Virus record (IMG/VR): IMGVR_UViG_3300040801_003297
DNA from: a virus
Length of the DNA: 46,788 bases
Reading direction: 5' to 3' (one strand)
Shown here: positions 35,593 through 39,131 of the stretch, piece after piece
Position numbering within the stretch: position 1 is the first letter of the stretch
Layout of the letters: each line of letters opens with the position of its first letter
Notes under the pieces: generated by a model
Told to the model about the DNA's origin: nothing
The model's input: the letters and a program-made list of their open reading frames with translations, nothing else
The model's database searches: none
Made by a program: the position numbers and the translations under genes

Positions 35593-35633
35593 ATACTACT
35601 ATGACTTCGTGAGTTAGTACACTACTTTGCGAA
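35593..35633 (-). promoter_or_regulatory. Early promoter-operator cassette, copy F (divergent; -10 is TAGTAT)
   Basis: Minus strand: TTCGCAAAGTAGTGTACTAACTCACGAAGTCATAGTAGTAT. It overlaps the 3' end of the deaminase gene. Confidence 0.5.
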
Positions 35634-36060
35634 CCCACTCGCGAGCATTTTCGCCACTTGCCAACCATAGCTCTCGCGCGTGGATGTGAGTGTACTCGTC
35701 AGCGTAGACGATCCTCTTGGCTGAGGTGTTCATCAGCAGCTTAACGCAGCCGACGCAAGGCGAGGTCGTGCAGTAGACGGACCAGATCTGGTGGACGTCG
35801 CTACACTGGAGAAGCGCGTTGGCCTCGGCATGTATTGCCTCGCATAATTCTAGGCCGGTGCCTGAGGGCAAATGGGCGCCCGGACAGGCCCTGTCTATAC
35901 AGTGCGTCTGGCCTGCCGCGACGCCGTTGTACCCGGTAGCGAGCACGTGGAGCCGCTCGTTAATCAGGATGCACCCTACTTCCCGCCTCCGGCACGTAGC
36001 CCGCGTAGCAACCTCTCTAGCCAGCCTGAGGAAGTACGTATCGACATCTGGCCTGCTCAT
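35614..36060 (-). CDS. dCMP deaminase (cytidine/deoxycytidylate deaminase zinc-binding fold)
   Basis: VGCILINE...LATGYNG, HAEANAL and PCVGCVKLL (H-A-E and PCxxC zinc motifs). ATG at 36060 is preferred over GTG at 36069. Confidence 0.85.
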   Translation of the reverse strand: MSRPDVDTYFLRLAREVATRATCRRREVGCILINERLHVLATGYNGVAAGQTHCIDRACPGAHLPSGTGLELCEAIHAEANALLQCSDVHQIWSVYCTTSPCVGCVKLLMNTSAKRIVYADEYTHIHARELWLASGENAREWVRKVVY

Positions 36061-36125
36061 GCCAGCCACCGGAAAAAGACGACCAGAGCCGCCGTGAGGG
36101 CTATCGTGGCGAGTAGTCCTAGCAT
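36057..36125 (-). CDS. Possible 22-aa transmembrane micro-ORF
   Basis: Own translation: MLGLLATIALTAALVVFFRWLA. Its stop TGA overlaps the deaminase ATG (ATGA). No clear RBS. Confidence 0.2.
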   Translation of the reverse strand: MLGLLATIALTAALVVFFRWLA

Positions 36126-36138
36126 CGGCTCGCTGTGC

Positions 36139-36429
36139 TCATTGAGATCCATCGTCCGTCCTCCCTTCGGGGTGATCCTCAGGTCGGTACCTGTTGGCGA
36201 GATAGTAGGCGTGCTGCCCGCACTCCGAGATCACTTCGGCTGAATCGTTGTAGTGCCCGGCGCGGACAGTCTCTTTCGCCAGTTGCATGCACTGGACGAA
36301 AAGGCGCTCCCGGTATGCGCCGTAGCCTCTTTGGCGTGTCGGGTTGGTGTTCTCGCCGCAAGCAGTCAGTAACACGATCAGCAGCACTACGAGAATCGAG
36401 ATCAATGTGGATCGTCTAAACATAGTCAT
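36139..36429 (-). CDS. Small lipoprotein (hypothetical)
   Basis: MTMFRRSTLISILVVLLIVLLTACGENT has a signal peptide with lipobox LTAC. The ATG shares one base with the upstream stop. Confidence 0.6.
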   Translation of the reverse strand: MTMFRRSTLISILVVLLIVLLTACGENTNPTRQRGYGAYRERLFVQCMQLAKETVRAGHYNDSAEVISECGQHAYYLANRYRPEDHPEGRTDDGSQ

Positions 36430-36632
36430 CACCTGTCGAACATCTGCGAAAGCACGTGCTTCGCTCCTCTGTCAAACGGCGTGGGATCCATCGGGTCGTT
36501 AACGTGGTCCCAGGCCTCATGAGCGAGTCCTTCTGCCATTTGCTCCTGCGCCCACTCTACGCCTGCCAGCCACTCTTTTTTGTAGTTGCGGTTGCGGTAC
36601 CAGTGGACAAATCCTCGTATGAAATTGATCAT
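36429..36632 (-). CDS. Hypothetical 67-aa protein
   Basis: ATGA overlap with the upstream gene; no motif. Confidence 0.5.
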   Translation of the reverse strand: MINFIRGFVHWYRNRNYKKEWLAGVEWAQEQMAEGLAHEAWDHVNDPMDPTPFDRGAKHVLSQMFDR

Positions 36633-36823
36633 AGCGAAATGTCCATGATCGCGTCACGAAGTTCTTCGGTGCGCTCGCCTTTGTTGAACCTGTCGCGACA
36701 CGGCGTGATTGCGAAAGCCATAGCGAACAGTCCTGCCGACCCGGTTTCGGCGTAAGCTTTTTCGCAAGCTTCTAAGCGCTCTTCGACTGCTACCCAGTCT
36801 ATGTTGTGGATGTCGTTTTTCAT
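36629..36823 (-). CDS. Hypothetical 64-aa protein
   Basis: ATG 36823 (MKNDIHNIDW...) forms an ATGA overlap with the SEC-C protein stop. Confidence 0.5.
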   Translation of the reverse strand: MKNDIHNIDWVAVEERLEACEKAYAETGSAGLFAMAFAITPCRDRFNKGERTEELRDAIMDISL

Positions 36824-37044: not shown

Positions 37045-37053
37045 AGCGATCTC

Positions 37054-37305
37054 CTAGTTAATTTCATGCGCCGGCACGTCCGGCATCCCTTGACTCCAAT
37101 GCTCAAGCAAAGCCTTCAGAGCGTCAGCGACCGCCTTGCGCTCGCAGTTCGATATATAGCTGCATCGGCTGTCGTCAGTCGTCTGGAAAACGACTAGCGC
37201 GAACCCAATGTCGTCGCGGCCTGATACTTTTTGCAGATCGCGGCTTATCCGCTTCGCGAGTGTTTGAAGCTGCTTCGACACAGCTCGGTCTGTCTGGTTA
37301 GTCAT
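37054..37305 (-). CDS. Hypothetical 83-aa protein
   Basis: ATG-initiated ORF in an operon context; no motif. Confidence 0.5.
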   Translation of the reverse strand: MTNQTDRAVSKQLQTLAKRISRDLQKVSGRDDIGFALVVFQTTDDSRCSYISNCERKAVADALKALLEHWSQGMPDVPAHEIN

Positions 37306-37306
37306 G

Positions 37307-37480
37307 CTATTTCGCCCTCGGCCAGTAGTCTACCAGAATGTGACCGCACTCTTCGCATTGTTCGGTGCTGACGGTCTCGATGATTCCCATGTGACCGCAC
37401 TCCGGGCATTGCTGGTCCTTATGCGTGACGAGGATTCTGCCCGTGTCGATCGTGCCTGTGTCGTTCTGTCGGTACGTCAT
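37307..37480 (-). CDS. 57-aa zinc-ribbon protein
   Basis: MTYRQNDTGTIDTGRILVTHKDQQCPECGHMGIIETVSTEQCEECGHILVDYWPRAK has CPxC...CxxC. ATGA overlap with the hydroxymethylase stop. The rest of ORF-track entry 37307..38044 is an out-of-frame artefact. Confidence 0.55.
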   Translation of the reverse strand: MTYRQNDTGTIDTGRILVTHKDQQCPECGHMGIIETVSTEQCEECGHILVDYWPRAK

Positions 37481-38274
37481 CCTCTGCGCTCCTGCATCCA
37501 CGCCGCGAAAGGGTACTCTTCGTGACAGTAGTTCGTATCGCCTGTAGTAAGAAACGCGAACTCGACCGGATCGCGTGCTCGCGGCATCGGGATTTCGGTG
37601 TAGCCGTCGACGCCGTCTTGGACCAGCATGCTCAACATCTCGAAGTGCCGCTCGTAGACGTGGAACGAATCGACCTTGTGGGTGTAGGTGCCCATCGTCA
37701 AATCGGGATACGCCCTCTTGCGTAGCGCAGCCAGCACCGCCTCTTGGAGAAGTGAGAAACAGAAGACGTCGTTGGTCATGCCGAAGATCGCATCGTTGCT
37801 TCGCATCGAGACAGACATTTTCAGCGTGCCATTTCGGATCCTGAAGTTGAGACCGTAGGTGCACACCACGTCGGGATTGTCCTCGCGCAAGTGACCGCGG
37901 TTGAGCAGAACCATGCACGCCCGCCGGGAATCGGCATCGCGCATCAGCTCTTCGACGACCCATGCGAACTGACGCTGGCCGAAGATGTATTGCCCGTAGT
38001 TGGAGTTGAATCCCAGGTCCCTGGGATCTTTGATCTTCGCCCACATGGTGGCGTGCTTTTCGATGCTGGTGTCGTAGCGATCACCTCGCAGATACCAGAG
38101 GAACTCTTCGATGCAGTACGCAAGGTTGAGACCGCGAGCACGAAACGAAGTAAGACGCTCGTAGGGTGCCAGCGTGAATTGATAGTCCTCGAGCTCGAGT
38201 ATCGACTGACCTCTGGGTGAGCACGGTCGACCATGTTCAAGCAGATCTTCGTAAACTCTTAAAAAGTTCGACAT
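37477..38274 (-). CDS. ThyA-fold deoxynucleotide hydroxymethylase, T4 gp42-like (predicted dCMP hydroxymethylase)
   Basis: 265 aa. FNSNYGQYIF, ADSRRACMVLLN, VVCTYGLNFRIRNGTLKMSVSMRSNDAIFGMTNDVFCFSLL and FHVYERHF align without gaps to E. coli ThyA APCHAFFQF...[20 protein letters not shown]. Catalytic Cys is kept, His147 becomes Thr, and Asn177 becomes Asp, as in T4 gp42 (MCT... RSNDVVFGFRND). Confidence 0.8.
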   Translation of the reverse strand: MSNFLRVYEDLLEHGRPCSPRGQSILELEDYQFTLAPYERLTSFRARGLNLAYCIEEFLWYLRGDRYDTSIEKHATMWAKIKDPRDLGFNSNYGQYIFGQRQFAWVVEELMRDADSRRACMVLLNRGHLREDNPDVVCTYGLNFRIRNGTLKMSVSMRSNDAIFGMTNDVFCFSLLQEAVLAALRKRAYPDLTMGTYTHKVDSFHVYERHFEMLSMLVQDGVDGYTEIPMPRARDPVEFAFLTTGDTNYCHEEYPFAAWMQERRG

Positions 38275-38767
38275 TGAGCAAGTCCTCTTCGGAATCCTGG
38301 GTGTAATCGTACCGCACGACGTTCGCGTTTCGGTACAGCGTAGAATCGAATGTCGCGTCGTAAAGAATGCGTAGTCTCTCCAAGCTGGCTTCGATGTCAG
38401 CGACGTATTCCGGTGTGTCGTACACCTCGGGCTCGTGCTTGACTTTGTCTAGATCGCCGACGCGACAATAGATGATAAGCGGCGCCACTTCGTCGAGGAG
38501 CTTGCGCTGCGCCTCGTAGTATTCCACATCCGATACGAGTTGCCGGCCGAACACTAGACCGTAGATCGGCTCGCTGATTTGCGTGACGCGATCCTGAATG
38601 CAAGGGAGCTGCGCGCGTTTGAAGCACTCGTCCATGTCGGCACGAACGCCTCCGGGCGTGCCGGCGGATCGACCTATCGCGAAGATCGCCAGCTTAGGGA
38701 ATATGGTTGCAAGCCGAATCGACAATGAGCTCTTGCCCATGCCGTCTGGTCCTTCAAGTATGATCAT
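38237..38767 (-). CDS. P-loop dNMP kinase, thymidylate-kinase-like
   Basis: Start at the internal ATG 38767 (MIILEGPDGMGKSS Walker A, then a DRV..ISEPIYG Tmk-like DR motif). 14-nt overlap with the upstream gene and 38-nt overlap with the hydroxymethylase start. Confidence 0.7.
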   Translation of the reverse strand: MIILEGPDGMGKSSLSIRLATIFPKLAIFAIGRSAGTPGGVRADMDECFKRAQLPCIQDRVTQISEPIYGLVFGRQLVSDVEYYEAQRKLLDEVAPLIIYCRVGDLDKVKHEPEVYDTPEYVADIEASLERLRILYDATFDSTLYRNANVVRYDYTQDSEEDLLNVELFKSLRRSA

Positions 38768-39131
38768 TGGGTTGCGTCCAGGGAGAGAGGTCCGGGGATT
38801 CCCAGCCCTCAGGTTTACGGAGATCGAGCTCGAACCCACCGCGCTTGCCATTGGGCCCGAGCTCTTTCTTCATGTTGGCAAGGACGACTTCCCGGAACCC
38901 ATCCATCGGCAGGCCTTGGCGTTCAAGCGTACCGATGACAAACACCAGCAGATCCAACAGAGCGTCGTACTCGTCTTCGAGGTCGTCGGCGAGTAGATAC
39001 TCAGTCGCCTCTTCGATGAAGCACGCAAAGCGGAATCGCTTCTCGTCGAGTTCGAGATTGCGCGGCCCGCCTTCGTACTGGATACCGAAGAGACGATGCT
39101 GGTCCTTGACGAGGTTCAGTAAGTCGTCCAT
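38754..39131 (-). CDS. All-alpha NTP pyrophosphohydrolase (MazG/dimeric-dUTPase/dCTPase-like)
   Basis: 125 aa. FIEEATEYLLADDLEDEYDALLDLLVFVIGT (EExxE...D..D metal-binding helices) and VVLANMKKELGPNGKRGG...KPEGWESPDL are typical of phage MazG-like enzymes. Confidence 0.7.
   Translation of the reverse strand: MDDLLNLVKDQHRLFGIQYEGGPRNLELDEKRFRFACFIEEATEYLLADDLEDEYDALLDLLVFVIGTLERQGLPMDGFREVVLANMKKELGPNGKRGGFELDLRKPEGWESPDLSPWTQPNDHT

Follow-up and report, generated by a model that had tools for sequence, protein, structure and literature searches.

A predicted five-gene route to 5-carbamoyloxymethylcytosine in a compact circular phage genome with lambda-type head genes

Five genes were identified in the window (the whole stretch of 46,788 nucleotides of IMG/VR record IMGVR_UViG_3300040801_003297) that together probably encode a route from cytosine via 5-hydroxymethylcytosine (5hmC) to 5-carbamoyloxymethylcytosine (5cmdC) in the phage DNA, as judged from sequence comparisons. 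An initial annotation had listed four of them, i.e. a MazG-like pyrophosphohydrolase, a P-loop kinase, a gp42-like hydroxymethylase and a dCMP deaminase, and all four open reading frames were verified on the minus strand at the coordinates given there. The fifth gene had been overlooked. The window was assembled as a circle whose ends overlap by 117 bp (bases 1-117 duplicate 46672-46788), and it represents a complete circular genome of 46.7 kb with two close metagenomic relatives (L004 and L005). The annotated backbone was also recovered, including the lambda-type TerL, portal, ClpP-like protease and gpE capsid protein as well as DUF2800, an Enc34 SSB, PolA and SNF2.

The overlooked gene encodes a carbamoyltransferase of 542 aa and runs across the circular junction on the minus strand. 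The N-terminal part is located at 1..755, with the start codon at 755, and it is joined across the 117-bp overlap to the C-terminal part at 45798..46671, which matches PF16861 (Carbam_trans_C, E 5e-24) as well as the last part of PF02543. The joined protein has the architecture Carbam_trans_N plus Carbam_trans_C, and its entire length aligns at 37% identity with the biochemically characterised 5hmC carbamoyltransferase (202/543, E 2e-93; PMC8670742), in which MSDLLLTLGHNASAIA corresponds to the N-terminus MKKEYAMLLTLGHNASAIA of the window protein. TobZ, NovN and GdmN were also matched, at 1e-12 to 1e-16. The residues H104, H108, D132 and D309 were invariant among the aligned homologues, and the HxxxH motif formed by H104 and H108, together with the two aspartates, may correspond to the metal ligands of the Kae1-like domain in TobZ. 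The characterised enzyme converts 5hmC to the 5-carbamoyloxymethyl derivative and was inactive on 5mdCTP and 5hmdUTP (PMC8670742). Because a full-length homologue spans the junction, 5cmdC is the likely final base, and the endpoint implied by the initial annotation, unadorned 5hmC, had to be revised; with an identity of only 37%, the acceptor specificity could nevertheless differ. In line with the initial annotation, a second thymidylate synthase, ThyX or a T4 beta-glucosyltransferase homologue could not be detected in the window by tblastn, but a base-modifying transferase is present in the form of the carbamoyltransferase. Its position is conserved in both close relatives, and the gene order PrimPol-carbamoyltransferase-SNF2-DUF2800 is the same in L005. 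The gene belongs to a separate transcription unit about 7 kb upstream of the remaining four, with SNF2, DUF2800, SSB and further genes in between. Thus, a key enzyme can remain hidden when its gene is split across the ends of a circular assembly.

The hydroxymethyl group would be introduced by a thymidylate synthase (TS)-fold protein of 265 aa (37477..38274, minus strand; PF00303, E 5e-18). The top PDB matches were CMP and dCMP hydroxymethylases, MilA (1e-21) and T4 gp42 (3e-13), and every thymidylate synthase ranked behind them. Cysteine C138 was aligned with the catalytic residues C146 of Escherichia coli TS (EcTS) and C148 of T4, and D169 occupies the position of EcTS N177 and T4 D179, which is related to cytosine specificity (GMTND in the window enzyme, GFRND in gp42 and GLPFN in ThyA). 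An aspartate is present three residues ahead of the catalytic cysteine (D135-V-V-C138), and a Ser-x-Tyr motif is formed by S91-N-Y93; ThyA has Leu and Val at the D135 and S91 positions, and PaMx74 gp52 has Asn and Ala. The C-terminal tail of thymidylate synthases, which seals the active site and ends with PVAI in ThyA, was not found by alignment, and the last 40 or so residues of the protein form an unrelated extension that is common to the Xp15 group. The published hydroxymethylase signature consists of an Asp that precedes the Cys by three residues, Ser-x-Tyr, an equivalent of Asp179 and a missing C-terminal tail (PMC6400193), and the window enzyme has all of these features. Its best NCBIfam TS score was 49.8 bits versus an equivalog cutoff of 327 bits, and due to this score, the Asp in place of Asn177 and the lack of the tail an assignment as canonical ThyA was rejected. 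Taken together, the features of the protein support an enzyme of the hydroxymethylase type with specificity for cytosine rather than a thymidylate synthase, as had been proposed. A DHFR homologue could not be detected in the window with tblastn, which fits this assignment, because a hydroxymethylase regenerates THF (PMC6400193). The relative L004 also encodes ThyX, and thus its TS homologue is dispensable for dTMP synthesis.

The MazG/HisE-like all-alpha NTP pyrophosphohydrolase of 125 aa (38754..39131, minus strand) is a putative dCTPase, possibly also a dUTPase. It matched PF01503 (PRA-PH, E 4.9e-6, 27.3 bits versus a cutoff of 21.3 bits) as well as the nucleotide pyrophosphohydrolase families PHROG 38514 and 671, and it is homologous to PaMx74 gp53 and Xp15 ZK. 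The closest solved relative is the MazG-like protein DR2231 of Deinococcus (E 2e-5), a dUTPase; the sequence does not discriminate between dCTP, dUTP and dTTP as the substrate. The dCMP deaminase (35614..36060/36069, minus strand; PF00383, E 4.9e-19) carries the zinc motifs HAE and PCxxC of the CDA fold. Its best PDB matches were dCMP deaminases, with the Streptococcus mutans enzyme at the top (3.6e-16), and it is 54% identical to the deaminase of the Xp15 cassette.

The kinase of 176 aa (38237..38767, minus strand) has a Tmk/dNK-type P-loop fold and is a candidate 5hm-dCMP kinase. It did not yield any match in Pfam or NCBIfam and lacks a close homologue of characterised function, and it matched PHROG 761, annotated as thymidylate kinase, with an E-value of 4.9e-11. 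All eight homologues begin with MIILEGPDGxGKS, which confirmed the start at 38767, and the Walker A motif GPDGxGKS (P-loop) and a DR motif are invariant among them. An AlphaFold2 model (pLDDT 88.6) was compared with known structures using Foldseek, and YorR (3kb2) was retrieved with a TM-score of 0.72, followed by dNK and TMPK, with a probability of 1.0 for YorR, dNK and many TMPKs. The best structural match was the model of Xp15 ZJ (TM 0.73-0.80), and phage thymidylate kinases came next. The model thus supports an analogue of T4 gp1 with a Tmk/dNK fold. Homology to gp1 was rejected, because the hhalign probability was 3.4% and the P-loop alone was aligned.

The comparisons establish the identities of the genes, their active-site signatures, the relationship to the characterised carbamoyltransferase and the conservation of the cassette, whereas all substrates, the extent of the replacement and the stage of carbamoylation are inferred in the following route. 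The MazG-like enzyme would hydrolyse dCTP, and perhaps also dUTP, to the monophosphate, so that dCTP is depleted and dCMP is supplied. The TS-fold enzyme would convert dCMP and methylene-THF to 5hm-dCMP, which the Tmk-fold kinase would phosphorylate to the diphosphate and the host NDK to 5hm-dCTP, and the phage PolA would incorporate the latter. The carbamoyltransferase would attach a carbamoyl group to the 5-hydroxymethyl group, either on DNA or on the dNTP, with the use of carbamoyl phosphate and ATP, and the deaminase would turn some of the dCMP into dUMP, from which the host ThyA would supply dTTP. In the searched literature no demonstration of 5cmdC in the virion DNA of an isolated phage was found. 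It is tempting to speculate that the kinase founds a new family dedicated to 5hm-dCMP (or 5cm-dCMP), and that carbamoylation is pre-replicative, with PolA incorporating 5cm-dCTP directly. This version is rather doubtful; if carbamoylation did precede replication, the hypermodification pathway would be fully pre-replicative, unlike that of T4. In a still wilder variant the deaminase could also act on 5hm-dC nucleotides, so that C and T would both be replaced.

Other explanations of the gene set were weighed against the route to 5cmdC. Plain 5hmC in the DNA, with the carbamoyltransferase acting on another substrate or modifying a small fraction of the sites, would agree with the hydroxymethylase signature and with a transferase that has just 37% identity to the characterised enzyme and is separately transcribed. 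It is nevertheless unlikely, because the homology extends over the full length, the family is linked to hydroxymethylase-type TS homologues in 54 of 57 loci, the position of the gene is kept in both close relatives, and co-occurrence of the two domains is limited to modified contigs (PMC8670742). Further or other hypermodification, i.e. a non-carbamoyl decoration of 5hmC or a deaminase that acts on 5hm-dC nucleotides and thereby adds 5hmdU-derived bases, is suggested by some TS-linked phage deaminases that deaminate 5hmdC forms and by the five small unassigned ORFs that separate the TS homologue from the deaminase. However, the deaminases with 5hmdC activity are all linked to 5mC-type TS enzymes, the window deaminase is nearest to canonical dCMP deaminases, and conservation within the cassette does not extend to the small ORFs, making this quite improbable.

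A replacement by 5mC as in Xp12 and PaMx74 would turn the TS homologue into a dCMP methyltransferase and let the deaminase convert 5m-dCTP to dTTP. An Asp at the N177 position is indeed common to dCMP methyltransferases, and 5mC phages with TS-linked deaminases exist. However, PaMx74 gp52 is ThyA-like, with Asn as the third residue ahead of the Cys, Ala for the signature Ser, a TS-type tail and an adjoining DHFR, whereas the window enzyme has Asp and Ser and lacks both the tail and a DHFR. As the characterised carbamoyltransferase is also inactive on 5mdCTP (PMC8670742), 5mC is very improbable. Simple boosting of nucleotide salvage with canonical DNA, based on a TS, a dUTPase, a dTMP kinase and a dCMP deaminase, would match the database labels "thymidylate synthase" and "thymidylate kinase", but it is extremely improbable in view of the Asp that replaces the uracil-specifying Asn, TS scores far under the equivalog cutoffs, and the hydroxymethylase signature with its link to the carbamoyltransferase.

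The compact pathway for replacing C by hmC had been regarded as unusual for such a small phage, but the cassette recurs. Xanthomonas phage Xp15 has carbamoyltransferase-MazG-kinase-TS-deaminase as one uninterrupted block, and the same cassette was found in dozens of IMG/VR contigs. Among the 57 IMG/VR carbamoyltransferase loci followed by 4 kb or more of downstream sequence, the TS homologue was present in 54, the kinase in 33 and MazG in 23, and the full hydroxymethylase signature was present in 59/68 carbamoyltransferase-linked TS homologues. Acinetobacter phage HHU4 likewise carries the core of carbamoyltransferase, TS and deaminase, and other Acinetobacter phages as well as Bacteroides phages contain close carbamoyltransferase homologues. 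The carbamoylation of 5hmC has been known from viral metagenomes since 2021, when a MetaGPA analysis associated the domains of carbamoyltransferase, TS, PRA-PH and dCMP deaminase with contigs carrying modified cytosine, with carbamoyltransferase and TS together seen only in modified contigs (Yang et al., 2021, eLife, PMC8670742). The window shares with that study the carbamoyltransferase, the Asp177 TS homologue, the PRA-PH pyrophosphohydrolase and the deaminase; it differs in the virus backbone and in the location of the carbamoyltransferase apart from the other four genes. It is thus a fresh example of a recurrent and already described kind and not a new type of system, and it leaves the present picture of DNA modification in phages unchanged. 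The kinase family, which goes unmentioned in PMC8670742, is the sole undescribed element, and it can now be flagged as a regular member of the cassette.

Xp15 (Alachuavirus) contains five homologous genes in the same order (ZK-ZJ-ZI-ZH and a "carbamoyl transferase"), but there the cassette is contiguous, the identities are 28-54% and the remainder of the genome shows no relationship at the DNA level. Xp12 and PaMx74 share an Asp177 TS-family enzyme, an adjoining deaminase and a MazG-like hydrolase, but their enzymes retain those features of ThyA that hydride transfer requires and are paired with a DHFR, in contrast to the hydroxymethylase features and the carbamoyltransferase of the window. 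With T4 the predicted route has in common the removal of dCTP, the hydroxymethylation of dCMP, a dedicated kinase, a dCMP deaminase and a decoration of the hydroxymethyl group (post-synthetic in T4), and gp42 and the TS-fold enzyme share the catalytic signature. The claim of a T4-like functional set therefore holds for the MazG-like protein, the kinase and the deaminase as analogues of gp56, gp1 and cd, but not as regards descent of the kinase from a common ancestor with gp1. In addition, the decoration would be carbamoyl instead of glucose, the pyrophosphohydrolase is HisE/DR2231-like, a phage TS and DHFR are lacking, and the genome has only 46.7 kb and lambda-type head genes. Hydroxymethylcytosine-based replacement appears to be common outside the T-even phages. 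As a complete circular genome with a full predicted 5cmdC pathway that is compact and syntenic with two relatives, the window is a handy template for reconstitution in E. coli.

The four genes form a single minus-strand transcription unit together with the Enc34/gp2.5-type SSB (39496..40074; PF10991, E 3e-33), in agreement with the initial annotation. The unit lies behind two tandem promoter-like motifs, AGTGTACA-N16/17-TAsAAT, at 40624..40727 (copies at 40624-40653 and 40690-40727). At least nine minus-strand copies of the motif were present versus 0-0.16 expected by chance, and the interval from 40624 to 34587 was free of copies. At 34608..34623 on the minus strand the unit is closed by a terminator-like hairpin with a T-run, and the next promoter-like motif follows at 34574-34587. 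The interval from the TS homologue to the deaminase contains five small ORFs of unassigned function, which are not a conserved part of the cassette. The MazG and kinase genes were verified to overlap by 14 nt and the kinase and TS genes by 38 nt, and both overlaps are identical in the relative L004.

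All four genes that the initial annotation had assigned to a T4-style dCTP-replacement module were recovered on the minus strand, with their coordinates unchanged. They encode a MazG-like protein of 125 aa (38754-39131; PF01503 PRA-PH, E 4.9e-6, above the curated cutoff), a P-loop kinase of 176 aa (38237-38767; PHROG 761 "thymidylate kinase", E 4.9e-11), a thymidylate-synthase-fold protein of 265 aa (37477-38274; PF00303, E 5e-18) and a dCMP deaminase (35614-36060; PF00383, E 4.9e-19). The overlaps of 14 nt and 38 nt between cassette genes are real, and overlaps of the same lengths are found in one relative. 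The MazG-like protein matched nucleotide-pyrophosphohydrolase families in a PHROG search and had no match in NCBIfam; among solved structures, the MazG-like protein DR2231 is nearest to it. The genome context was confirmed as well, i.e., lambda-type packaging and head genes (Nu1/gpA terminase, lambda-family portal, ClpP-like protease, gpE capsid protein) together with a replication set of DUF2800, Enc34 SSB, PolA, SNF2 and PrimPol.

A fifth gene is split by the window ends and is readily overlooked. Bases 1-117 of the window are identical to bases 46672-46788; with these 117-bp identical ends the assembly is circular and 46,671 bp long. When the ORF at 45798-46760 was scanned against Pfam, Carbam_trans_C was detected, but of Carbam_trans_N no more than the tail. 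After joining the ends, an intact carbamoyltransferase (CT) gene of 542 aa was obtained (45798-46671 joined to 1-755, minus strand). The order PrimPol-CT-SNF2-DUF2800 is identical in the related metagenomic contig L005, which validates the junction. The CT could be aligned end to end with the purified CT of Yang et al. (2021), with 202/543 identities (E 2e-93). With carbamoyl phosphate and ATP, the characterised enzyme converts 5hmC to 5-carbamoyloxymethylcytosine (5cmdC); it accepts 5hmC in single-stranded DNA and double-stranded DNA as well as 5hm-dCTP, and is inactive on 5m-dCTP and 5hm-dUTP (PMC8670742). The same MetaGPA study highlights three TobZ positions, W408, G421 and R423 (PMC8670742). 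The earlier statement that a glucosyltransferase is missing is literally true, as none was detected in the window by tblastn, but a homologue of another 5hmC-decorating enzyme, the CT, is present.

The start codon of the kinase was placed at 38767, because eight of eight database homologues start with MIILEGPDGxGKS; the P-loop is invariant, as is a DR motif. No match was found in Pfam or NCBIfam, and a sequence search against the PDB yielded nothing at E<=1. An AlphaFold2 model built from the eight homologues was confident (pLDDT 88.6). In the PDB its top match was B. subtilis YorR (TM 0.72), followed by deoxynucleoside kinases and many thymidylate kinases, and among viral models it was the Xanthomonas phage Xp15 cassette protein ZJ (TM 0.73-0.80), with phage thymidylate kinases next. 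The annotation of ZJ as a "DNA polymerase subunit" is wrong. Homology of the kinase to T4 gp1 was rejected, since hhalign of the kinase family against gp1 gave a non-significant probability of 3.4%. Because homology is undetectable, the kinase was treated as a functional analogue of gp1, a role suggested by the modelled fold and the gene context.

When solved structures were ranked for the thymidylate synthase (TS) homologue, the CMP hydroxymethylase MilA (1e-21) and T4 gp42 (3e-13) were found above every thymidylate synthase, and against the NCBIfam TS equivalogs it reached 49.8 bits, compared with cutoffs of 108-427 bits. It was aligned with E. coli ThyA, T4 gp42 and gp52 of phage PaMx74, which identified C138 as the catalytic cysteine. 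Asp169 occupies the position of ThyA N177 and gp42 D179, and this residue shifts the specificity from uracil to cytosine (PMC8670742; PMC6400193). Asp135 lies at Cys -3 and is accompanied by Ser91-x-Tyr93; this combination is the proposed signature of hydroxymethylation versus methylation, and the D145N exchange abolishes the activity of gp42 (PMC6400193). The C-terminal tail of ThyA, which closes the active site for hydride transfer, is absent. Homologues of PaMx74 gp52 have been shown to produce 5m-dCMP, and the phage is stated to have 5mC replacing C (bioRxiv 10.1101/2024.12.05.627091). The gp52 protein is ThyA-like, with Asn at Cys -3, Ala instead of Ser, a ThyA-type tail and an adjoining DHFR. 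In the window no DHFR was found by tblastn, which is consistent with a reaction in which THF is regenerated and no DHF arises.

Taken together, a five-gene pathway leading via 5hmC to 5cmdC is the probable function of the cassette. The identity of each gene, the active-site signatures, the relationship of the CT to the characterised enzyme and the conservation of the cassette are established. The MazG-like enzyme would remove dCTP and yield dCMP, which the TS homologue would convert to 5hm-dCMP. The kinase and the host NDK would then produce 5hm-dCTP for incorporation by PolA, and the CT, acting on DNA or possibly on the dNTP, would turn the hydroxymethyl group into a carbamate. The deaminase would supply dUMP for host ThyA and hence dTTP. 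Such a system would follow the logic of the T4 hmC pathway, with carbamoyl where T4 has glucose. It belongs to the family of 5hmC-carbamoyltransferase pathways that was described in 2021.

The alternatives differ in the expected base. Bare 5hmC in the DNA is unlikely: the T4-like functional logic of the initial annotation holds in part, but the end product predicted from it is probably incomplete, as a full-length homologue of the 5hmC CT is present. Another or an additional modification has a still smaller chance. Methylation of the Xp12/PaMx74 type, resulting in 5mC, also employs a TS homologue, but was rejected on the basis of the active-site signature, the absent tail and the absent DHFR, and is very improbable. 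Canonical DNA is hardly to be expected. A 5-hmdU pathway of the SPO1, PhiW-14 or M6 type, with a DNA kinase, was rejected on three counts: Asp takes the place of Asn as specificity residue, the fold of the kinase is that of NMP kinases, and the partner enzyme is specific for 5hmC.

The presumed rarity of the pathway was not confirmed. Xp15 has five contiguous homologues in the same order, CT, ZK (MazG-like), ZJ (kinase), ZI (TS homologue) and ZH (deaminase), and close CT homologues occur in the Acinetobacter phages HHU4, MD-2021a and Effie and in six Bacteroides fragilis phages. A single CT protein as query retrieved no matches from IMG/VR, and an alignment-based scan retrieved 73 CT loci. Where at least 4 kb downstream was available (n=57), the TS homologue was present in 54, the kinase family in 33 and the MazG family in 23 loci. 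Asp at Cys -3 was found in 68/68 CT-linked TS homologues, and the full signature in 59. Three of them (L047, L061, L070) have Gly-Ala at the N177-equivalent position, where the others have x-Asp, and retain Asp at Cys -3 and Ser-x-Tyr; either a shift in the alignment or a variant specificity could account for this. Co-occurrence of CT, thymidylate synthase, PRA-PH and dCMP-deaminase domains was already reported to be specific to cytosine-modified contigs, and a kinase is not among the partners mentioned in that study (PMC8670742). The added value is modest and consists of a complete genome, a conserved, unannotated kinase family and the lack of any report of 5cmdC in virion DNA of an isolated phage in the literature searched, where only the MetaGPA study and one review turned up on this subject.

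Megablast with 34600-41600 as query gave no match among 50,697 phage records, so that a close isolate is lacking at the DNA level. Synteny with the window extends over the entire early region in two metagenomic contigs, L004 (48.3 kb) and L005/L010 (45.5 kb). L004 (JGI 3300071177), the closest relative, encodes ThyX in its early region (4586-5290). Neither ThyX nor a second TS was found in the window by tblastn, and the phage presumably depends on host ThyA. L005/L010 have an N6/N4 DNA methyltransferase directly upstream of the CT (L005 2686-3450), which the window lacks. Among isolates, the TS-fold enzyme has its closest homologue (49% identity; L002 4959-5795) in the 344-kb Ralstonia jumbo phage RsoM2USA, where it is annotated only as "hypothetical protein"; a distant CT-like gene (24% identity) lies >100 kb away from it. 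A distant kinase homologue (29%) resides in a different cassette (L007 10001-14094), together with a dimeric-dUTPase-family protein (PF08761), a 348-aa unknown protein, a divergent TS-fold protein and a dCMP deaminase. No CT was found within the 10-kb flanks, and this cassette may be a distinct pyrimidine-modification module.

The tandem promoters proposed upstream of the SSB-to-deaminase unit correspond to two promoter-like motif copies (40624-40653 and 40690-40727; GAAAAACAGTGTAC / AGTGTACA-N16-17-TAsAAT), and as consensus matches they are putative promoters. At least nine copies occur, on the minus strand of the early region only, with a chance expectation of 0-0.16; the others are at 30134-30171, 32506-32543, 33190-33203, 33810-33823, 34574-34587, 41550-41586 and 42542-42571. 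The -35-like element is a non-canonical TGTACA. Because the minus strand has no copy from 40624 to 34587 and a terminator-like hairpin is located at 34608-34623, a single unit plausibly runs from SSB through the MazG-like gene, the kinase, the TS homologue, five small ORFs and the deaminase to DUF932. The five small ORFs of unknown function between TS homologue and deaminase are not kept in cassettes elsewhere; one encodes a 73-aa protein with a C-terminal SEC-C zinc-binding motif (36823-37044, minus strand; PF02810, E 1.5e-8). The gene between SSB and the MazG-like gene (39136-39447, minus strand) encodes 103 aa, with termini rich in Lys/Ala. This protein had no match in a family search; it is 76% conserved in L004, and L005 has an ORF of comparable size at the same position.
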